Assembly: GCA_045632845.1 (NCBI GenBank) | Contig: JAZQXL010000020.1 | Coordinates: 35,386-99,385 of the forward strand | Origin: Alphaproteobacteria bacterium | Lineage (GTDB): Bacteria; Pseudomonadota; Alphaproteobacteria; CAAHEQ01; UBA3637 | Direction of reading: 5' to 3' | DNA length: 64,000 bases | Part shown: in pieces, positions 7,796 through 27,780 of the stretch | How the letters are laid out: each line of letters starts with the position of its first letter | How positions within the stretch are numbered: the stretch's first letter is position 1 | Translations under genes and position numbers: made by a program | The notes under the pieces: model-generated | The model's database searches: none | Told to the model about the DNA's origin: nothing | Seen by the model: only the letters and a program-made list of their open reading frames with translations

Positions 7796-8105
7796 AAAAA
7801 AAAGTGGATTTTCTGTTGCTAGGTAATCCACAAACCCCACCTAAACGCTCATATTGTCTAGGGATTGATCGTTACTTAGATACCTAAAATTAAGCAGCTA
7901 AAGCAACTGGAGCAAAATTATCATTTGCGTTTATATTATCAGCCCGATAACGGTGGTACAATACCGGATACAAGAGAAAGCCTTTATTATGCGTGTCGAT
8001 TCTATTTCACCCCCATAATAAATGGTGGAGGTGTCGGGTACTGCCCCCGAGTCCACAGACATCTATTCTGCTTTTCGTTTAGCATCATAGTCAGTTACCT
8101 GACAA
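7796..8105 (-). ncRNA. ssrA: tmRNA (ssrA), two-piece circularly permuted form. Acceptor piece ~8105..8023 ends in CCTCCACCA. An 8-nt linker follows, then the coding piece from ~8014 with tag ORF 7928..7890 and a terminator at ~7796-7831
   Basis: Minus-strand GCA AAT GAT AAT TTT GCT CCA GTT GCT TTA GCT GCT TAA encodes ANDNFAPVALAA-stop. Acceptor 3' strand CACCTCC-A-CCA pairs with GGGGGTG at the start of the coding piece. Stem TCGGG/CCCGA with a 7-nt loop sits before the 3' acceptor strand. Confidence 0.7.
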
Positions 8106-8109
8106 GTTT

Positions 8110-8138
8110 AGTATACCCTAAAATTAAACCAAGCGCAA
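8110..8138 (-). promoter_or_regulatory. Candidate sigma70 promoter for ssrA (TTGCGC, 17 nt, TATACT)
   Basis: hexamers and spacing read from the sequence; AT-rich background makes chance matches possible. Confidence 0.3.
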
Positions 8139-19484: not shown

Positions 19485-19561
19485 GCACTTGTAGCTCAGC
19501 TGGATAGAGTATTGCCCTCCGAAGGCAAGGGTCGTGAGTTCGAATCTCGCCAAGTGCGCCA
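19485..19561 (+). tRNA. tRNA-Arg (anticodon CCG), CCA encoded
   Basis: Acceptor GCACTTG/CAAGTGC, anticodon arm TTGCC-CTCCGAA-GGCAA, T-arm GTGAG-TTCGAAT-CTCGC, discriminator G then CCA. Confidence 0.8.
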
Positions 19562-19802
19562 AAAAACACCACCTGCAAAGGTGGTTTTTTTGTACTTGAG
19601 CGGGAACAGAACTCACGAAGTGACGTTCGGTGAGCACCGCGAACGACGCCGAAGGCGGTCCTTTAGGACGAGTGTTTTATGCACGAGCAATCTCGCCAAG
19701 TGCGCCAAAAAACACCACCTGCAATGGTGGGCTTTTTTTGTACTTGAGCGGGAGAAAAACTCACGAAGTGACGTTCGGTGAGCCTTGCAAACGACGCCAA
19801 GC
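19543..19802 (+). repeat. Tandem imperfect direct repeat (two ~115-122 bp copies, 19543-19664 and 19689-19802, ~90% identical). Each copy contains the last ~19 nt of tRNA-Arg, the terminator hairpin and ~60 bp of downstream sequence
   Basis: aatctcgccaagtgcgccaaaaaacaccacctgcaa[a/t]ggtgg...gtacttgagcggga...aactcacgaagtgacgttcggtgagc...aacgacgcc occurs twice. Confidence 0.6.
19563..19593 (+). terminator. Intrinsic terminator after tRNA-Arg (CACCACCTGCAAAGGTGG plus T7)
   Basis: hairpin plus T-run. Confidence 0.5.
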
Positions 19803-19968
19803 AAAAAACTTTTAATAAAAATATACACACAGAACGACGTAGTACAACGCGTTTTGTGCACAAAAAAAGATAAAATATTACTATTTGTGATATTTTTTTA
19901 TAAAATCACAAAAAAACACTTGCATTTTATCTCAAAATGGAATATAAATACGATTACCAATTCAATAT

Positions 19969-20043
19969 TGGGCTGTCGCCAAGTGGTAAGGCAACGGTTT
20001 TTGATACCGTCATTCGTTGGTTCGAATCCAGCCAGCCCAGCCA
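19969..20043 (+). tRNA. tRNA-Gln (anticodon TTG), CCA encoded
   Basis: Acceptor TGGGCTG/CAGCCCA, anticodon arm ACGGT-TTTTGAT-ACCGT, T-arm GTTGG-TTCGAAT-CCAGC, then G-CCA. Confidence 0.8.
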
Positions 20044-20049
20044 ATAAAA

Positions 20050-20076
20050 AAGGTCCCGTTTATCGGGACTTTTTTT
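20050..20076 (+). terminator. Intrinsic terminator after tRNA-Gln (GGTCCCG-TTTAT-CGGGACC plus T7)
   Basis: hairpin plus T-run. Confidence 0.5.
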
Positions 20077-20080
20077 ATTG

Positions 20081-20254
20081 GACTGAGGGTGTTTGGGTTC
20101 GGCCCAACGAATAGTTGGTTCGGTCATGTAGCGTCAGCGAAGTGGACGGCGAAGAATGAGCCGGTCCGAACAAAGTGAGGACGAGGGATTTATCCCGAGC
20201 AATCCAGCCAGCTTTAGGTGAAACAGATAAGTCGCTAGAAATAGCGACTTTTTC
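20081..20254 (+). ncRNA. Candidate structured small RNA: GC-rich ~150-nt segment ending in its own intrinsic terminator (GTCGCTAGAAATAGCGAC plus T-run). Identity unknown
   Basis: local GC well above the neighbourhood, no credible ORF, terminator at the 3' end. Confidence 0.25.
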
Positions 20255-20700
20255 TTTTATTTTCACCGCTTAATCTGGTCCGTGTGCTGTGTTTTTCAAA
20301 AAGCCTGTTTTTCAGCCCTACACGGACTCAAAATTCAAAAAATCCTTTGTTTTCAATGCTTCTGTCTTGGAATGTCAATTTTTCATCCCAGAGATAACTA
20401 AATGTATTCAGACTGAGTTTGGATGAGAAAAAGATATTCCTATAACACGCTTATTGCTACTGCCATCTCGGAGTACCTACCTGCCACCTAGAGGACCTTG
20501 GGAGCCCGACCGGCATATCCCAGCCATCAAAATTAAATGCAACATCGTTAATGGAGTGTTTTTTTTGCAAGAGCCTTTACATGCGAGAGCCAATGAGAGT
20601 CTATACTTGTTCAGTATAATTGTTCATTTCAACCTCTGCCTACGCATATACAGAGGTTAAACACAACAAACCTCTGCCAAAAAAGCAGAGCTCAGTACTT

Positions 20701-20771
20701 CGATTAAGTGACATTGATGTCTGTTAATAAAAAAAACAACCTCGATTTAATCAAAACCGAGGTTAAATCAT
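20701..20771. repeat. Left copy of a ~70-bp imperfect direct repeat flanking the R-M cassette; contains the inverted-repeat core TGACA-ttga-TGTCt
   Basis: cgattaagtgacattgatgtctgttaat...aacctcgatttaatcaaaaccgaggttaaat compared with the right copy. Confidence 0.5.
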
Positions 20772-20782
20772 AAAGCAAATAC

Positions 20783-21196
20783 TTACTTTTTTACTTTTTT
20801 TAATTTTCGTATTCCATAAGTTGCATTTAGAAGAACAACATCTAAATCTACTAAACATTTCCTATATTGTTTAATGCCATCATTGAATTTAGGATTTTTT
20901 ATGTAAAGTTCTTCTAAGTAAGATTGAAAAACATCGTATTTTTCTAAATCTTTTTCGTTCAATAAATACATAAATAAAGATTGATTTTTATTAAACCAAT
21001 CAACAATTTTTTGAATACTTTCTTTATCAAACTTATAAATTATACATGCCTCATCCATTTGATGGGCTAAATCAAATCTCTTTAAGCGTAAATCTTGTTT
21101 AAACTGAGCATGAGCAATCCAGCACTGTATCGCAGTAAACAAAACGATAGCAATAGCACACATCCATTCTGCATTCTGTTGTAAAATTTGCAACAC
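20783..21196 (-). CDS. Hypothetical small membrane protein (one N-terminal TM) at the edge of the R-M cassette
   Basis: ORF with TM segment WMCAIAIVLFTAIQCWIAHA. Confidence 0.4.
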   Translation of the reverse strand: MLQILQQNAEWMCAIAIVLFTAIQCWIAHAQFKQDLRLKRFDLAHQMDEACIIYKFDKESIQKIVDWFNKNQSLFMYLLNEKDLEKYDVFQSYLEELYIKNPKFNDGIKQYRKCLVDLDVVLLNATYGIRKLKKVKK

Positions 21197-21243
21197 CTTT
21201 TTCTTTCTCCTATAGGTTAATCACAACATATATAGGTATGCCA

Positions 21244-21564
21244 CTAATATAAATCAATCCCTTTTCCTAATTCTATGTCAAAAACAGTTTGATTTGTGTT
21301 GAGATCATTTTTTGAGTTAGGCTTTAGGATTTTTATTGACTTAATTTCAAATATCATTTTTTCAGGATTTTTTCTATATGCTTTTTGAAATTCAACATAA
21401 GAATATTTATTGGCTACAGACAATCGCTTAATCCAATAGTCTTTACACTCTCGATATTCATGTGTTTTTACACCGGCTTTAATCTTTTCAAACCAGATAT
21501 CTTTCAAAACTAATTTTAAAGTGTTAGACATTATTAAGAACTTTTCTTGAATAGAGTGTCCCAT
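21244..21564 (-). CDS. Small PUA-like (ASCH-type) domain protein, overlapping the 3' end of the methyltransferase gene
   Basis: LKLVLKDIWFEKIKAGVKTHEYRE resembles the ASCH N-terminal beta-barrel signature (W/F-E-x-I-x-x-G-x-K-T-x-E-x-R); weak. Confidence 0.4.
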   Translation of the reverse strand: MGHSIQEKFLIMSNTLKLVLKDIWFEKIKAGVKTHEYRECKDYWIKRLSVANKYSYVEFQKAYRKNPEKMIFEIKSIKILKPNSKNDLNTNQTVFDIELGKGIDLY

Positions 21565-22751
21565 AATTCTGAAATGTGCTTTGCTACGTTATAAGCCAAT
21601 AGAGGTGGAACCGCATTACCTATAATCTTATATGCAGCAGAAGCACTTAATACATTTGGCTTTACAAACTCATATTCATCAGGAAAAGTCTGTATTCTTG
21701 CGCATTCTCTAACAGTTAATCTTCTTTCAGATAGTCCTTTTTTTAACTCTTTTTCATGCTTTCCACCATGATCTTTTGACAATCTTCTGAATTCGATATT
21801 GCCGTGATGTTCTGCACGAATTGTAGGACCTAATCCTTTTAAATTGATTTCAGTATTTCCTTGACCTTTTTGCATATACTTTGCTTTCGAATATGCTTTT
21901 TGAGCAAAATCATCTGACGATGAAGGTTCCGGCAAATCTCTTAATATTTCTTCTACGGATACCAAAGGAAGTAAGTCTTTATTGTCAAACAAAGTGCTTT
22001 TTTGATAAATATTATGTGTAATCGGTGGATATAAATTTATTTCTTTTTTTTCAATCTTCTCAAGAACTCCTGGATTTAAAGCAGCTTTATTTAACCCTAT
22101 AAAAATAATTCTTTCTCGTTTTTGTGGCACACCATATTCGCCAGCATTTAATACTTTTGCAGGGAATACGTAGTAGCCATCCTTATCAATCGACGAAAAA
22201 TCTGATTCTATAATCTTTTTTGCCTCGCCCAAAGAAACCAATCCTTTTACATTTTCTGCAAAAAATATCTTGGGTTTTACGATTTCTATAACTTCTTTCA
22301 TCCACATATATAAACAACCACGATTTTCGTAAGTAGGTATATCGATATCTTTCTTTCCTAAGTGGTTTTTTTGAGAGTTAAATCCATTACGCTTACCTGC
22401 TAAACTAAAATCTTGACAGGGAAAACCTCCCGTGAGAATATCTATATCATTTGGAAACACTCTTTCGCCAGACTTATGTTGTTTAACCAAATCAACGATA
22501 CTTTCTGTTCTATAAGTTGTTTTTTTATCCTTAAAATATAACTTCCATGCAGTAGCAGCTTCTTTTAGTATGTCATTACTAAAAGTAGTGGTAAAACCCG
22601 TTGGAGCTAATAAAACTCTTTTGCCAGATTTCTTTTTTATCCAGTCAGGATGTATTACGGTGTTTACGCTACTTTCATGTACATAGAAATCACCCTCGAA
22701 ACCAATGTCCATACCGCCGCATCCACTGAATAATGATAATACTTTTTTCAT
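21534..22751 (-). CDS. DNA (cytosine-5)-methyltransferase, Dcm family (type II R-M methylase)
   Basis: Motif I FSGCGGMDIGF, motif IV GGFPCQDFSLAG, motif VI FFAENVKGL, motif VIII QKRERIIFIG, motif X GNAVPPLLA; RBS AAGGGAG. Confidence 0.9.
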   Translation of the reverse strand: MKKVLSLFSGCGGMDIGFEGDFYVHESSVNTVIHPDWIKKKSGKRVLLAPTGFTTTFSNDILKEAATAWKLYFKDKKTTYRTESIVDLVKQHKSGERVFPNDIDILTGGFPCQDFSLAGKRNGFNSQKNHLGKKDIDIPTYENRGCLYMWMKEVIEIVKPKIFFAENVKGLVSLGEAKKIIESDFSSIDKDGYYVFPAKVLNAGEYGVPQKRERIIFIGLNKAALNPGVLEKIEKKEINLYPPITHNIYQKSTLFDNKDLLPLVSVEEILRDLPEPSSSDDFAQKAYSKAKYMQKGQGNTEINLKGLGPTIRAEHHGNIEFRRLSKDHGGKHEKELKKGLSERRLTVRECARIQTFPDEYEFVKPNVLSASAAYKIIGNAVPPLLAYNVAKHISELWDTLFKKSS

Positions 22752-22814
22752 TTTACTCCCTTGCTTTATTTAATTCTTCATGCTATACTTAATAACAACT
22801 TTGGAGAATATAAT

Positions 22815-23918
22815 ATGGCAGATATACGCACAAACCTAAGAGAACTTTCAGTTGCGTTTCCGTTTTGTTCAGATATAACGATAGAACAGATTTCCCCTCA
22901 AGCTTTTAAATCTATATGCGAAAACAATATACAAAATTTTAATTCTAATGTAAACAAAATTTCAAAAAATCCCAAAAAATTTTCTTTAGATGAAATAAGT
23001 ATCATAAAAAAAGGCTTTGATCTAGGTCTTTCCTTAAAGAAGATACTCAAACTAGACACTATAGGAAATACAATCGTATGGCTTGGAAATTCAAAAGATG
23101 ATTTAATAGACTTAAAGATAAATGAACATGCGATTTCATTGAAAGAAAAGTCCAACATCCTACGAAACATAGGATTATATCAATTATTAAACTTTACTAC
23201 AAACACAAATAAATTTGAAAGAGGATTAAATATTTTTAAATATTTTGCTCCAGAAGAATTAAATAATTGGTATCACTATGCAATTTTATCTTTAAAAACA
23301 TTAAAAAATTTTTCATATAAAAGCGAAAAAGGATATACATCAACAGCATTCTTTAAAGAAGATTCCTTATTTTTAAGTTTCAACGAAACAGAAGAAATTG
23401 TTAAAAATTCATCTACATCATCTTATTCGGATTTTGAGAAAATAACCTCTGCGACAATAAGAGAAAAAGTTTTTTCAAAATGGTTAAAACAAATTCCAAC
23501 TAAAAGTGATTACTACAAATTTAAAACCATTTGTGCTCAAAAGGCAGGGAATAATCTTTTAAACTTCGTAAAAACAAATTTAGTGGCAACTTCCCCGTCT
23601 GTTCTGAATTTTTTTAATTTAGAAAGTTTTAGCTATATTTATGCAAAAAATGATGGAAAGCAAATAAAAATATTTAAAGTCCCCTCTCTTAATGAAATAG
23701 ATTTTAATGATTATAAAATAGTAAGAGTTGATGTTGATATCCCCAACTCTCAGCTAAATTTTAAAACAACTATACAAAACATCAAAACAGATTCATGCTG
23801 TGTATTGCGTAATGAGATTCGATATTCGCACGGACAGTTAAATGGCACTCCCGAAGCCAAGTTATACTATGACTCTGGTGATGGACTTGAAAAACTAATC
23901 TATAAAAAATTATCCTAA
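22815..23918 (+). CDS. Candidate restriction endonuclease partner (unknown family), divergently transcribed from the C5-MTase with a 63-bp intergenic gap
   Basis: position and divergent orientation only; extremely AT-rich, N/K-rich protein; RBS GGAGAA; no nuclease motif identified. Confidence 0.35.
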   Translation: MADIRTNLRELSVAFPFCSDITIEQISPQAFKSICENNIQNFNSNVNKISKNPKKFSLDEISIIKKGFDLGLSLKKILKLDTIGNTIVWLGNSKDDLIDLKINEHAISLKEKSNILRNIGLYQLLNFTTNTNKFERGLNIFKYFAPEELNNWYHYAILSLKTLKNFSYKSEKGYTSTAFFKEDSLFLSFNETEEIVKNSSTSSYSDFEKITSATIREKVFSKWLKQIPTKSDYYKFKTICAQKAGNNLLNFVKTNLVATSPSVLNFFNLESFSYIYAKNDGKQIKIFKVPSLNEIDFNDYKIVRVDVDIPNSQLNFKTTIQNIKTDSCCVLRNEIRYSHGQLNGTPEAKLYYDSGDGLEKLIYKKLS

Positions 23919-24140
23919 ATTCTTCTGAGTTAACTTTAGAAACGGTGTATTTTCATTTTTCCTGATTTCTATGTACTCAGGTAAGATTTATGTCTAGCCT
24001 TCTTTTTTTAAAAAGACTTCTTGCTCCACATATACAAAGGTTAAAGTAAGAGCCGAGCCCTAAGGGCAGGAAGTTGTGTTTGGCAAATTTTAACCTTTAC
24101 CTACACACATACAAAAGTTCAATGGATAAAACACTCTTTG

Positions 24141-24208
24141 CGATTAACTGACATTGATGTCACTTAATGAAACACAACTTCGGTTTTGATAAAATCGAGG
24201 TTAATTTT
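24141..24208. repeat. Right copy of the ~70-bp imperfect direct repeat flanking the R-M cassette; contains the perfect inverted repeat TGACA-ttga-TGTCA
   Basis: cgattaactgacattgatgtcacttaat...aacttcggttttgataaaatcgaggttaatt. Confidence 0.5.
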
Positions 24209-24279
24209 CTTAGCCTTTCAAAATAATAATAAAAAAATTTTCTAACAACAGTTCAAAAGGAATAAAAAAATTGTTATCC

Positions 24280-25392
24280 TCATTTTTTTGTTAAAAAATT
24301 AACAATCGGCTTATTAAATAGGTGTATAACAACTATTGAAAACAACAAACCAACCCCTAAAACAAAACCAAGTTCAGCAATCCAATCTAAAACAGGTATT
24401 TGAAAATTAAAATTCAGATTATCAGCATAAATATCTATCAAATAAAACTGGAACAAATAAATTCCCCAAGAATACCGTCCAACAATTTGAACAAACTTGT
24501 TGCACAAAAATTGATTTTGAACCAGCATTTGAGAAACAATCAATAATGAAAATATCAATGCCCAAACCGTATGTTTATTAATCAAAAATAAATTGTATGT
24601 ATCGTAAAAATTAAAACACATTAATTCAAAACAAACAATCAACAAAAAATATGAAATTATTTGTTTCCCTGGCACCTTTGAAAGATTTATCTTTTGAAAT
24701 ATATAATATAAAAAAATACCTAAAATCAAAGTTGGAAAATGTTCTATAAAGCAAAAATCAGAGATATAAGAATTATATACCTTCTCATCTAACGAATCAG
24801 AAAAAGGTTTTAATCGAAACAAAAACTCATTAAGATAATAAACCACAGGACTAGACAAAGCAAACAAAAAAAGCGCCTTAAAAACTGAATTAACATATTT
24901 GAATAAAAAAGGAATTAATAATGTAAATATCGCCAATACACCAACAAACCATTCTACATACAAAATACTGTTACTATAACGGGGAAAAAAACCATGAACA
25001 AAAAATAAATGCGTCAAAAAATTCGAAATCGTTATGTTTGTTTCGCTCCCCAACCATATAGATTGTTTCTCATAAAAAAAACCAACACAAACAGCCACAT
25101 AAAATAATGGAATTAAAAAACAAAATCTATTTTTTATCCATTTTAGACAAGAAACAAAAGAATATTGATTTTTTTTAAAATAAAAACTCAAACTATTATA
25201 GGACAAAAATACCGAAATCAAAAAAAACAAAACAACCCCACACCAACCTGCTCTGACAATTCCTAAAAGCAATTGGGGTAAATCTAATTCAGCACCTGTG
25301 TGTACCATAAGAACAAACAGCATTGCATAGCCTTTTAATGCATCTGCCCATATCAATCTTTTTGAATTAAAAGCCGTTATCTCTTTTTCCAT
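24280..25392 (-). CDS. Membrane acyltransferase, family 3 (OafA/O-acetylase-like)
   Basis: ~10 TM segments; N-terminal ADALKGYAMLFVLMVHTG pattern typical of the acyltransferase_3 family. Confidence 0.55.
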   Translation of the reverse strand: MEKEITAFNSKRLIWADALKGYAMLFVLMVHTGAELDLPQLLLGIVRAGWCGVVLFFLISVFLSYNSLSFYFKKNQYSFVSCLKWIKNRFCFLIPLFYVAVCVGFFYEKQSIWLGSETNITISNFLTHLFFVHGFFPRYSNSILYVEWFVGVLAIFTLLIPFLFKYVNSVFKALFLFALSSPVVYYLNEFLFRLKPFSDSLDEKVYNSYISDFCFIEHFPTLILGIFLYYIFQKINLSKVPGKQIISYFLLIVCFELMCFNFYDTYNLFLINKHTVWALIFSLLIVSQMLVQNQFLCNKFVQIVGRYSWGIYLFQFYLIDIYADNLNFNFQIPVLDWIAELGFVLGVGLLFSIVVIHLFNKPIVNFLTKK

Positions 25393-25606
25393 TTATACCC
25401 CATAAAAAACTTAACATATTGTCTTTTAAAATAAATAGTAATTTATGCATCACATTATGTCAATTAAAACAAAGAAATTTATTTTTTTGTTTTAAACAAT
25501 CTATACATCACTCGATTAACCTAACCAACAAAGAATATTCTCTTAAAGATTTTTCACCATCACTCTCATTCTATTTCCTAGATTTAAACATTTTATTGTA
25601 AAAACA

Positions 25607-25635
25607 TTGACAAAATCTCATTCTTATGATAATAT
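25607..25635 (+). promoter_or_regulatory. Near-consensus sigma70 promoter (TTGACA, 17 nt, TAATAT) 28 nt upstream of the 25663 gene, followed by RBS AAAGGAGAGA
   Basis: read directly from the sequence. Confidence 0.4.
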
Positions 25636-25662
25636 ATAAGAAATCAATTCAAAGGAGAGAAA

Positions 25663-27036
25663 ATGAAGAGTCCAGTTTTATACAATTTGTCTGAAATAAA
25701 AGAGCTTTATGATGCCTTTAAAGAATATGTTAGAACAAAAGGATTTTATGAGGAGTGTATGGACTCTTTAAAAAAATACAACACCTCCTTTTTTAAACTG
25801 ATTGTCAAAAGTAATCAGACAAAAAAACTATTCAAGGTAAGAAAAAACGACTTTTTAGGAAAAAGCACCATCGGTGCAAACAATACCCTATCTAAACCAA
25901 CAATTGAAGATGCTCATTTTTATCGTGCTTGGGTTAAAAACAATCCTACTCAAGATTTAATCCCAACAAAAATCACGTTTAAAAAAAGGTACATCAATCT
26001 ACTTGGAAACACGGATCAATCTTTTGATAATGTCCGCATTTTTATATCCCCAAATGCGCTAATTTTGCCCAAAACAGAAGATAAAAGACCACTTAAAGAA
26101 ATACCAACACAAAATCCTCATGCAATTGAAGAATTGGTCTATTTAGCTGAAGCTTATGATGAATTTATTTTTTCATACAAAGGGTCTAAAAATCAGAAAA
26201 ATTTTGATGAATTTTTTAAAAATAACTTTTTAACCAAAGTTATCCCTCCTTATTTTCGCCAATCCATGGCTGAACCAATTATTAAAATTGTTGAACAAAC
26301 AAGACGCTTGTTAACACAAACATTGTTACAAAATTTTGAACCACAAATAACGGCAAGACAAAATTTATTAAACAATACAGATACTCCTGAAGTTTTTCTA
26401 AAAAACAACAGAAATGAAGTTTTTATCCTCTCAGAACAAGTTGGCGTTATTGATAACGCTCAAAAATTAATCAAACTTCATGATTTAAGAGACGACTTGG
26501 CACATCCAGATACAGAAATGGACATTCTTGTTGATGTTCCTGAAAATGTAAATGAAATTTATGAAACTGTTTTTAACATGATTCGTCGCATCACAACAAC
26601 CAAAAATTTAACAGTTCAAAAAGTAACAAACACAAACGATTCAAATGACCTCACTCCTTTTGTTTTGTGGGCACAAGGCCATAAAGTTAAAGATCACATC
26701 CCAGTTATTGAAAAGAACAAAGACATTGAAACGCCAACATTAATTCACACAATGCAATGTTTGGATATGGCTGTCAAAAGCGCTGCGCCAATTAGTTCAA
26801 ACGGAAAACCTTTAAAAGGGAAAAAACAACGCGACTGGCTTATTAAAGAAGGAATAATGGACCAATCTGATCAACAAGATTATGAAGCAGCAAAACATTT
26901 AAGAAATGCTGTATGCCATGGAAATGCAAATACACAAACACATATGGATATCATTGCGAAAAATGAAACATCACAAAAATTAACTCAAAAAATCATCAAC
27001 AATATGACTCAAAAAGGTCTATTGCAAAAATCATAA
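25663..27036 (+). CDS. Hypothetical 457-aa protein with two HEPN-like Rx4H motifs (LRDDLAH near residue 276, HLRNAVCHGN near residue 415)
   Basis: motif-level only; no other recognisable domain. Confidence 0.35.
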   Translation: MKSPVLYNLSEIKELYDAFKEYVRTKGFYEECMDSLKKYNTSFFKLIVKSNQTKKLFKVRKNDFLGKSTIGANNTLSKPTIEDAHFYRAWVKNNPTQDLIPTKITFKKRYINLLGNTDQSFDNVRIFISPNALILPKTEDKRPLKEIPTQNPHAIEELVYLAEAYDEFIFSYKGSKNQKNFDEFFKNNFLTKVIPPYFRQSMAEPIIKIVEQTRRLLTQTLLQNFEPQITARQNLLNNTDTPEVFLKNNRNEVFILSEQVGVIDNAQKLIKLHDLRDDLAHPDTEMDILVDVPENVNEIYETVFNMIRRITTTKNLTVQKVTNTNDSNDLTPFVLWAQGHKVKDHIPVIEKNKDIETPTLIHTMQCLDMAVKSAAPISSNGKPLKGKKQRDWLIKEGIMDQSDQQDYEAAKHLRNAVCHGNANTQTHMDIIAKNETSQKLTQKIINNMTQKGLLQKS

Positions 27037-27189
27037 CACCTCTTGCACAAAAAAAAATACGCATCATCCTGCCAACAAGCGAGGTAAACTCATGCTCATA
27101 TAAACACAAAAAAAACATTGCGTTTAGTATTCAAAACACTCAATATAACATATAGATTATCATTCATATTCATAATAAATGGGGTAATT

Positions 27190-27780
27190 ATGAAAAAAAT
27201 CTTATTTTCCATTTTATTTTCTTGTGTGTTTTTATGCAACACAACTCAAGCTCAAGTCGTTTCTAACGAAGAAATAAACCCAACCAAACTTGAAAACGCA
27301 AAAAAAATTATTTTGCAATTACAAGCGGAAATGAAAGACTATATCTCAAACGGGTCAGGGCCTTTTTTAGCTGCTGTGATTGATGAAAATAGAAAAATCG
27401 TTTCCAAAACCGCCAACAGTGTTGTATCGGAAGGTTGCAGTAATAATCATGCAGAAATGAATGCCATTAAAATGGCTCAAAAAAACTTAGGAACCTATGA
27501 TTTATCAAAACATAACTTAAGCTTATATGTTACGTCTGAACCTTGCATGATGTGTATTGGGGGCATTATGTGGTCAGGCATCAAATCCGTGTATTATGGT
27601 GTTCCTTCAAAACGAGTTGAAGAAATCACAGGTTTTGATGAAGGATTTAAACCAAATTGGTTTGAAGAATTTAAAAACAGAGGAATTGTCGTTTATGGTA
27701 ACATTGAAATAGAAGAAGGTGAAAAAGTACTGCATAATTATGTAGACACGGGCAAAACAGTGTACCAACCAGAACGATAA
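27190..27780 (+). CDS. CDA-fold zinc deaminase resembling guanine deaminase GuaD / TadA, with an N-terminal Sec-type signal peptide (predicted to be exported)
   Basis: MKKILFSILFSCVFLCNTTQA-QV signal peptide; GPFLAAVID, HAEMNAI and EPCMMCIGG zinc-binding motifs parallel to GuaD (GPFGAVIV / HAEVTAI / EPCPMCLGA). The track start at 27118 is a TTG, so it is rejected. Confidence 0.65.
   Translation: MKKILFSILFSCVFLCNTTQAQVVSNEEINPTKLENAKKIILQLQAEMKDYISNGSGPFLAAVIDENRKIVSKTANSVVSEGCSNNHAEMNAIKMAQKNLGTYDLSKHNLSLYVTSEPCMMCIGGIMWSGIKSVYYGVPSKRVEEITGFDEGFKPNWFEEFKNRGIVVYGNIEIEEGEKVLHNYVDTGKTVYQPER

Follow-up and report, generated by a model that had tools for sequence, protein, structure and literature searches.

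A candidate single-chain tandem-HEPN ribonuclease family from uncultured low-GC Alphaproteobacteria

The stretch of DNA analyzed here, hereafter the window, comprises 64,000 nucleotides of contig JAZQXL010000020.1 from an alphaproteobacterial assembly (GCA_045632845.1, positions 35,386 to 99,385 of the forward strand). It contains a gene for a 457-residue protein, a candidate ribonuclease (RNase) with an N-terminal α/β domain and two HEPN-like helical domains, each of which carries an Rx4H motif. A preliminary description of the locus had set the start of the gene at 25607. This position is the −35 hexamer of a promoter, TTGACA-17-TAATAT, which is present as that description had it, whereas the coding sequence begins at 25663. 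The features of the gene, all on the plus strand, are as follows.

25607–25635, plus strand: sigma-70-type promoter, with TTGACA at 25607–25612, a spacer of 17 nucleotides, TAATAT at 25630–25635, and TG before the −10 hexamer
25652–25657, plus strand: ribosome-binding site AAGGAG, 5 nucleotides 5′ of the ATG, read from the sequence
25663–27036, plus strand: coding sequence of 457 residues with an ATG start, member of a tandem-HEPN-like family
25663–26178, plus strand: N-terminal α/β domain, residues 1–172, fold family unassigned (from the AlphaFold2 model and the alignment)
26185–26598, plus strand: HEPN-like helical domain 1, residues ~175–312 (AlphaFold2 helices 178–310)
26488–26505, plus strand: Rx4H motif 1, residues 276–281, in L-H-D-L-R276-D-D-L-A-H281, followed by an invariant P282
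26599–26727, plus strand: variable linker or insert, residues 313–355, poorly conserved and of varying length in the alignment
26728–27012, plus strand: HEPN-like helical domain 2, residues ~356–450 (AlphaFold2 helices 356–374, 386–395, 401–418 and 424–450)
26902–26919, plus strand: Rx4H motif 2, residues 414–419, in H-L-R414-N-A-V-C-H419-G-N

The two motifs are the only Rx4-6H occurrences in the whole 457-residue sequence, and their arginines, R276 and R414, are 138 residues apart. This agrees with the pair of Rx4H motifs about 140 residues apart that had been reported earlier; the position given for the first was right, and that of the second was shifted by a trivial offset (residues 412–421, not 411–420). 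With 16 arginines and 10 histidines in the protein, ~0.35 Rx4H motifs are expected by chance, and two in one sequence have a probability of ~0.05. Because of this chance expectation, the two motifs of a single sequence, taken alone, are marginal and merely suggestive. It is the conservation across the family that raises the pair above chance. In an alignment of 20 sequences, whose subgroups are 17–26% identical to the query, ten of the 457 columns are invariant (M1, R214, L217, L246, R276, H281, P282, R414, N415 and H419), and the motifs hold six of the nine that remain besides the initiator methionine. The homologs keep the arginine and histidine of both motifs down to ~20% identity, and both motifs are also retained in more distant members, such as P0032 with RRNAVAH and RLDVAH.

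Catalytic HEPN motifs have a polar residue (N, D or H) directly after the conserved arginine (PMC3710099). Here all members of the alignment have D or N at residue 277 and N415 is invariant, such that both sequence hallmarks of the HEPN superfamily, the Rx4-6H motif and the polar residue behind its arginine, are present. The upstream helix of domain 1 has a near-invariant E211 and the invariant R214, with a spacing of Ex2R compared to the typical Ex3[KR] of HEPN domains, and D368 of domain 2 is kept in ~70% of the members.

Structure prediction by AlphaFold2 using the close homologs only as alignment gave a mediocre model, with a predicted local distance difference test score (pLDDT) of 71 and a predicted template modelling score (pTM) of 0.42. 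The 20-sequence alignment yielded a model with a pLDDT of 87.7 and a pTM of 0.82, the latter corresponding to a defined domain arrangement; the pLDDT is 54–78 over residues 321–360. In this model the N-terminal domain consists of a long helix, three β-hairpin-like pairs and further helices, and none of the 20 members has a Pfam, PHROG or PADLOC match in this domain. The extreme N-terminus, M-x-S-P-[IV]-x-[FY] (residues 1–7, 25663–25683), is kept among subgroups that are otherwise ~20% identical, which suggests that this peptide is functional, for instance as a plug or an interaction strand.

Further inspection of the two helical domains showed that motif 1 closes helix 266–280, with H281 opening the loop to helix 296–310, and that motif 2 closes helix 401–418, just before the loop to helix 424–450. 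In HEPN proteins the motif is placed at the C-terminal end of the penultimate helix, with its histidine opening the loop to the last helix (PMC3710099), and both motifs take this place in the predicted structure. Each of them thus ends the penultimate helix of a HEPN-like bundle, and the best structural matches are HEPN toxins. In a Foldseek search against the PDB, every match with a probability above 0.6 was a HEPN protein. The best were chains of HepT (DUF86) from the MntA-HepT type VII toxin–antitoxin system (PDB 5yep, 6m6u and 7bxo), with probabilities up to 0.97, root mean square deviations (RMSD) of 3.4–4.1 Å over ~100 columns and a target template modelling (TM) score of 0.5–0.56; among them are 7bxo_F (0.97, RMSD of 3.6 Å over 98 columns), 6m6u_G (0.96) and 5yep_B. 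Other HEPN matches were 1wwp_A (0.89, target TM score of 0.62) and HI0074 (1jog_A, 0.82). These HEPN matches were also obtained with the first, poorer model.

At curated thresholds the protein has no recognizable enzymatic domain, as had been stated, since the single protein, searched against Pfam, NCBIfam and the PDB sequences, gave nothing relevant. Scanning the 20 members singly against Pfam revealed six families matched, below threshold, by at least two members, and all six are HEPN families: RiboL-PSP-HEPN (five members), DUF4145 (four), HepT-like (three), NTase_sub_bind (two), Cthe_2314 (two) and DUF4209 (two). One member also matched MAE_28990, likewise a HEPN family. PMC3710099 confirms six of these seven as HEPN families, whereas RiboL-PSP-HEPN is not in that paper and owes its HEPN status to its Pfam name. 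The matches fall on both domains: NTase_sub_bind on residues 242–289 of P0018 and Cthe_2314 (HEPN_Cthe2314) on residues 203–273 of P0017 and 216–332 of P0032 cover domain 1, and HepT-like, DUF4145 and RiboL-PSP cover domain 2, where the RiboL-PSP match spans 120 residues of P0023. Moreover, the PADLOC model CARF_HEPN matches residues 400–444 of the protein (E=1.7e-4, model positions 334–376 of 382) and the motif-2 region in five members (best E of 2.4e-5), and the model for RT-associated HEPN proteins (RTasHEPN) matches weakly (E=0.026). Alignment of domain 1 against domain 2 by hhalign brought a helix, G-[YL]-[IL], a second helix and R-[DN]-x3-H into register (P=0.0038, single comparison). 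Because the elements of both domains are in register, we suggest that the two domains may have arisen by internal duplication.

Several of these results weigh against a HEPN assignment. The Pfam scores of 14–21 bits lie below the curated cut-offs of 23–32 bits, and the Foldseek E-values are 0.1–3; those of the HEPN matches are 0.7–3, outranked by long helical alignments of low probability. Profile searches of the PDB with the whole family and with each domain returned chance-level matches only, to ferritin, a NEDD8 E1 subunit, PBP2 and Cas13b (E=6.8). In all, every HEPN similarity stays short of the curated or statistical thresholds, and none is significant alone; therefore, the fold assignment rests on several weak lines agreeing. 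A search of a large database with the domain-2 profile at E≤10 recovered two family fragments only and no bridge to annotated HEPN proteins, and the P0029 fragment found nothing when searched against the PDB. The motif-2 arginine is also replaced in P0033 and P0034, which read C-N-T-V-A-H and Y-N-T-V-A-H and keep the asparagine, the histidine and an intact motif 1; judging from these residues, the second HEPN site of this subgroup may be degenerate or asymmetric.

With all similarities below threshold, the protein could also be a non-catalytic helical protein that binds a nucleotide, a ligand or another protein, or a generic bundle whose arginines and histidines are conserved for structural reasons. 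Four-helix bundles are common, the Foldseek E-values exceed 0.1, and some HEPN families do lack catalysis (PMC3710099). However, such families characteristically lose the Rx4-6H motif (PMC3710099), whereas here both motifs are nearly the sole invariant positions, and the recurrent weak matches are exclusively HEPN families rather than a random helical mix. We consider this explanation improbable. Taken together with the invariant motifs, the weak lines from sequence and model make a tandem-HEPN assignment quite likely, and the HEPN reading of the preliminary description is upheld by their agreement, with every individual score below threshold.

Compared to HepT, its best structural match, the protein has the Rx4H motif at the same end of the penultimate helix, and sub-threshold HepT-like matches lie on domain 2 of several members. 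They differ greatly in architecture. HepT is a single-domain protein of ~130 residues that forms a homodimer and is neutralized by an adjacent MNT nucleotidyltransferase, whereas the present protein has 457 residues, two HEPN-like domains in addition to the N-terminal domain, and no adjacent MNT gene in seven contexts. Cas13 also possesses two different HEPN domains per chain, which pair into one RNase site (PMC12373285), and the RNxxxH form of motif 2 is common to both. The domain-2 profile weakly aligned both catalytic motifs of Cas13b (PDB 6dtd), though not significantly (E=6.8), and Cas13 gave no significant sequence or fold match to the protein. In contrast to Cas13, the protein has about half the size or less, lacks a lobe that recognizes CRISPR RNA (crRNA) and has no nearby CRISPR array.

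The best PADLOC match of the protein is to CARF-HEPN proteins (Csm6/Csx1), and it covers the C-terminal HEPN part of the model only. The protein has no CARF match, its predicted N-terminal domain of β-hairpins and helices is not Rossmann-like, and neither a type III CRISPR system nor a cyclic-oligonucleotide synthase gene is near its gene. AbiD/AbiF (Pfam Abi_2) are HEPN RNases of abortive infection with an RNxxAH-type motif, thought to be related to the ancestors of Cas13 (PMC12373285). AbiF has one motif per chain, forms a homodimer and is under the control of a structured RNA encoded beside it (Rfam RF03085); no member of the present family has a Pfam match to Abi_2, and the abiF RNA motif gave no match at E≤1. 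The stand-alone defence proteins DARNA/PD-T7-3, ApeA, PD-T4-2 and HepS each couple a HEPN RNase to a sensor domain that is itself non-catalytic; they stay silent until infection and then cleave tRNA (DARNA preprint). The present gene stands alone as theirs do, and DARNA, with ~456 residues, is similar in size. However, DARNA consists of one N-terminal HEPN domain and a C-terminal helical domain, and forms its active sites by dimerizing within a dodecamer, compared to the order of an N-terminal α/β domain followed by two HEPN-like domains here. Altogether, the protein is best described as a new family and a new architecture (N-terminal α/β, HEPN, insert, HEPN) within the known HEPN superfamily (Pfam clan CL0291).

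Eleven close relatives, with 59–100% identity, were recovered by a word-indexed search; the named ones among them are “hypothetical proteins” from metagenome-assembled genomes (MAGs) of Alphaproteobacteria. When 1.84 billion cluster representatives were searched exhaustively with a profile, 25 proteins were returned at E≤1e-3. The family thus amounts to ~25 clusters at 50% identity, none of them named and all from metagenomes or MAGs, and the matching GTDB genomes are MAGs labelled Alphaproteobacteria, including samples from water-buffalo and roe-deer caecum. It is a small, fast-diverging and undescribed family, so far restricted to Alphaproteobacteria MAGs of low guanine-plus-cytosine (GC) content and metagenome contigs. 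One relative, P0027, has 288 residues and lacks the N-terminal α/β domain; it has a hydrophobic start, which is probably membrane-spanning, followed by both HEPN-like domains with intact motifs, and would accordingly be membrane-anchored as far as its sequence indicates.

For comparison of gene surroundings, related loci were collected, four close ones being found with the close-homolog alignment. The homolog at locus L014 is 24.5% identical to the protein, while the adjoining rho is 82% identical to that of the window, and at L018 the homolog is 25% identical compared to 53% for DnaA. The location of the gene varies between lineages, with a tRNA gene adjoining it in the window and at L016. 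Such fast divergence combined with a shifting location is typical of conflict genes. The gene is present in single copy, and no paralog was found in the window or in the loci examined; paralogous expansion was accordingly rejected. Against close strains its dN/dS is 0.10–0.16; therefore, the gene is under purifying selection.

The promoter is shared by the family. In the window and at L001, L004, L006, L007, L009, L010, L014, L016 and L018, a site of the form TTGACA-17-TAnnnT (TTGACT once) lies 48–56 nucleotides 5′ of the ATG, i.e. at ten of ten loci in seven independent contexts; that of L016 matches the consensus at 12 of 12 positions, and L007 and L010 have the same AAGGAG ribosome-binding site. 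The promoter is kept although the genes upstream of it are unrelated among these loci, so that it appears to travel with the HEPN gene or to be reselected for it. Promoter-like sites as such are not enriched in the window (15 found versus 24.5 expected).

Upstream of the gene, the window contains the following features.

19485–19561: tRNA-Arg(CCG) gene
19969–20043: tRNA-Gln(TTG) gene
21534–22751, minus strand: C5 methyltransferase of a type II restriction-modification pair
22761–23918, plus strand: restriction enzyme of the same pair (PADLOC REase_II, E=1e-50)
24280–25392: Acyl_transf_3 gene, between the restriction-modification cassette and the HEPN gene

The preliminary description had placed the gene next to a restriction-modification cassette and a secreted deaminase and had argued from this for an accessory, defence-type neighbourhood. 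The adjacency is literally there, but the acyltransferase gene intervenes, and the segment with the cassette and the acyltransferase is absent from close relatives. Compared to L007 and L008, where the protein is 96% identical, nucleotide homology starts at 25586, 21 nucleotides before the −35 hexamer, and continues downstream at 93%, whereas the sequence upstream of −77 is unrelated between strains. Positions 20076–25585, which also hold two small open reading frames (ORFs) of no assigned function, have no counterpart in L007 and L008; there, ~35 nucleotides ahead of the point where homology starts, lie the remnant of a tRNA-Gln 3′ end and a terminator, and ahead of these the gene of another C5 methylase (27.5% identical). 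The restriction-modification pair is bracketed by 32-nucleotide direct repeats with adjacent hairpins (20701–20732 and 24141–24172). As its segment is absent from L007 and L008 at the tRNA hot spot, the cassette is a strain-specific insertion. The HEPN gene itself is part of the flanking sequence that the strains share, and the restriction-modification neighbourhood is coincidental. The argument from a defence island thus fell away; the cassette is real but sits in this insertion, the other neighbours have no PADLOC system matches, and homologs elsewhere lie among housekeeping genes.

In the same upstream region, the 3′ end of the tRNA-Arg gene with ~110 nucleotides downstream is tandemly duplicated (19543–19650 and 19689–19798, 89–94% identity), and the tRNA-Gln 3′ end is found again, in degenerate form (ATCCAGCCAGC), near 20205. 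Such repeated ends look like attachment-site remnants of past integrations at a hot spot spanning 19485–20215.

The surroundings of the homologs vary. The gene lies among hypothetical genes at L001, between ybaB-recR and a cation-efflux gene at L004, L006 and L013, next to rpsT at L009, next to rho at L014, and after cspA near dnaA at L018; at L016 it is flanked by a GNAT gene on one side and by a tRNA-Ala gene, with a giant ORF beyond, on the other. The seven genomic contexts share no partner gene, neither an MNT gene nor a small partner ORF, in agreement with the earlier view of the gene as stand-alone. Neither tandem repeats nor a CRISPR array were found within 19–29 kb, and no Rfam motif occurs near the gene, abiF included at E≤1; an association with CRISPR or with an RNA antitoxin was rejected on these grounds.

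These contexts bear on whether the protein could be the toxin of a toxin–antitoxin module, or a delivered effector, whose antitoxin, immunity protein or RNA was missed. HEPN RNases are often toxins, as in HepT/MntA, RnlA/RnlB and AbiF with its RNA; small unannotated ORFs adjoin some homologs (94 residues downstream at L001, 107 residues antisense at L004), and a GNAT acetyltransferase is encoded nearby in the window and at L016. However, no neighbour is kept across the seven contexts, the MNT gene and any abiF motif, other Rfam match or tandem repeat are missing near the gene, and the sequence upstream of −77 is unrelated between strains. The GNAT proteins of the window and L016 do not match each other in BLASTP at E≤1e-3, and a conserved GNAT partner was rejected. 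In addition, the protein has neither a signal peptide nor a polymorphic-toxin architecture. We regard a missed partner as very improbable, the least probable of the explanations weighed here.

Catalytic HEPN proteins are metal-independent endoRNases that leave 2′,3′-cyclic phosphate ends (PMC3710099; PMC12373285; DARNA preprint), and their bipartite active site is built from two Rx4H motifs, contributed by a homodimer or, in Cas13, by two domains of one chain (PMC3710099; PMC12373285). By this precedent the present protein is predicted to be a metal-independent endoribonuclease whose cleavage would leave 2′,3′-cyclic phosphate ends. The two motifs of one chain would meet as a pseudo-dimer and form a single composite active site; in active DARNA and Csm6 sites the distance is ~8 Å between the histidines (DARNA preprint). 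The gene would be transcribed alone from its near-consensus promoter, with no conserved partner gene or RNA. Given a strong promoter and no neutralizing partner, such an enzyme would have to be self-limiting. It might be silent until a trigger arrives, probably autoinhibited by the N-terminal domain as a sensor or lid, or it might be narrowly substrate-specific. We infer that the N-terminal domain acts in regulation or substrate recognition.

On sequence and model together, we propose with reasonable, though not high, confidence that the protein is a new single-chain tandem-HEPN RNase, probably autoinhibited, with a plausible role in conflict or abortive infection. As a stand-alone conflict or abortive-infection-type RNase, its most likely role, it would fit the fast divergence, the shifting location, the tRNA-adjacent positions and the precedent of DARNA, ApeA, HepS and PD-T4-2. 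Other observations speak against this role. PADLOC recognized no known defence system, only weak HEPN-domain similarity; its version 2.0 presumably includes models for DARNA/PD-T7-3, ApeA, PD-T4-2 and HepS. No phage or plasmid relatives were found, and a BFVD viral fold search together with PHROGs gave no relationship to phage proteins. The adjacent restriction-modification cassette is an unrelated insertion, the neighbours of homologs elsewhere are housekeeping genes (recR/ybaB, rpsT, cspA, rho and dnaA), and it would be unusual for a toxin to be expressed constitutively with no antitoxin.

Part of this evidence would suit a lineage-specific housekeeping or regulatory tandem-HEPN RNase, which would process or degrade a particular cellular RNA in rRNA or tRNA metabolism, mRNA turnover or stress response, with Las1 and Ire1 as eukaryotic analogues. 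A single copy under purifying selection, a conserved strong promoter with no antitoxin, neighbours that are often RNA-related (rpsT; rho with PNPase; cspA with PNPase; recR/ybaB) and, in the lineage of the window, a place in the strain-shared backbone rather than in an inserted island all agree with such a role. Its extreme divergence compared to rho and DnaA, its shifting position between lineages and the small size of a family confined to one clade do not, and the housekeeping neighbours may just reflect small genomes with few accessory regions. We consider a housekeeping RNase, the main alternative, unlikely, though less so than a non-catalytic protein, and rate the defence-type role somewhat higher on the present analysis; the data do not separate the two. 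The most specific form of the proposal is a compact (~450 residues) pseudo-dimeric immune or stress RNase that needs no guide RNA, antitoxin or partner and is switched by a novel N-terminal sensor domain; we put this forward as a tentative possibility, itself more doubtful than not.

Cas13, Csm6, RNase L, many toxins and several recent single-gene phage-defence systems are all based on HEPN RNases. In most of them the active site is made by homodimerizing, and the superfamily is already very diverse. If the proposal is true, a small, partner-free protein with two different HEPN domains in a single chain would be a new architecture in the superfamily and a minimal, independent route to pairing HEPN domains within one molecule, for which Cas13 is otherwise the main known case. 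It would also allow the silencing and subsequent triggering of an intramolecular HEPN site to be studied in a simple model. The family is new and unannotated for both Pfam and the catalogues of defence systems, and a function would be given to a conserved “hypothetical protein” of an uncultured gut lineage of Alphaproteobacteria. Were the role a housekeeping one instead, the protein would be a rare bacterial HEPN enzyme for routine RNA processing.

Downstream of the HEPN gene, the deaminase gene at 27190–27780 encodes a CDA fold (Pfam dCMP_cyt_deam_1, E=1e-16; MafB19-like deaminase, E=2e-15) with an apparent N-terminal signal peptide (MKKILFSILFSCVFLCNTTQA). Translation probably begins at the ATG at 27190 rather than at the TTG at 27118. 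It is unusual for a deaminase of nucleotides or nucleic acids to be exported. Outside the closest strains (L007, L008 and L010), this gene is not conserved beside the HEPN gene.

Further downstream, a 1224-residue ORF (28515–32189) has no Pfam or PADLOC match and is present in L007 and L008. L010 (89% identical) lacks this ORF and part of the next ORF of 262 residues, the deletion corresponding to 28557–32702 of the window. The region is thus a second variable segment, on the other side of the block formed by the HEPN, deaminase and GNAT genes. At 7799–8116 the window also encodes a tmRNA of the permuted two-piece type with the tag peptide ANDNFAPVALAA, as predicted by ARAGORN, which we take to fit an alphaproteobacterial origin of the window.

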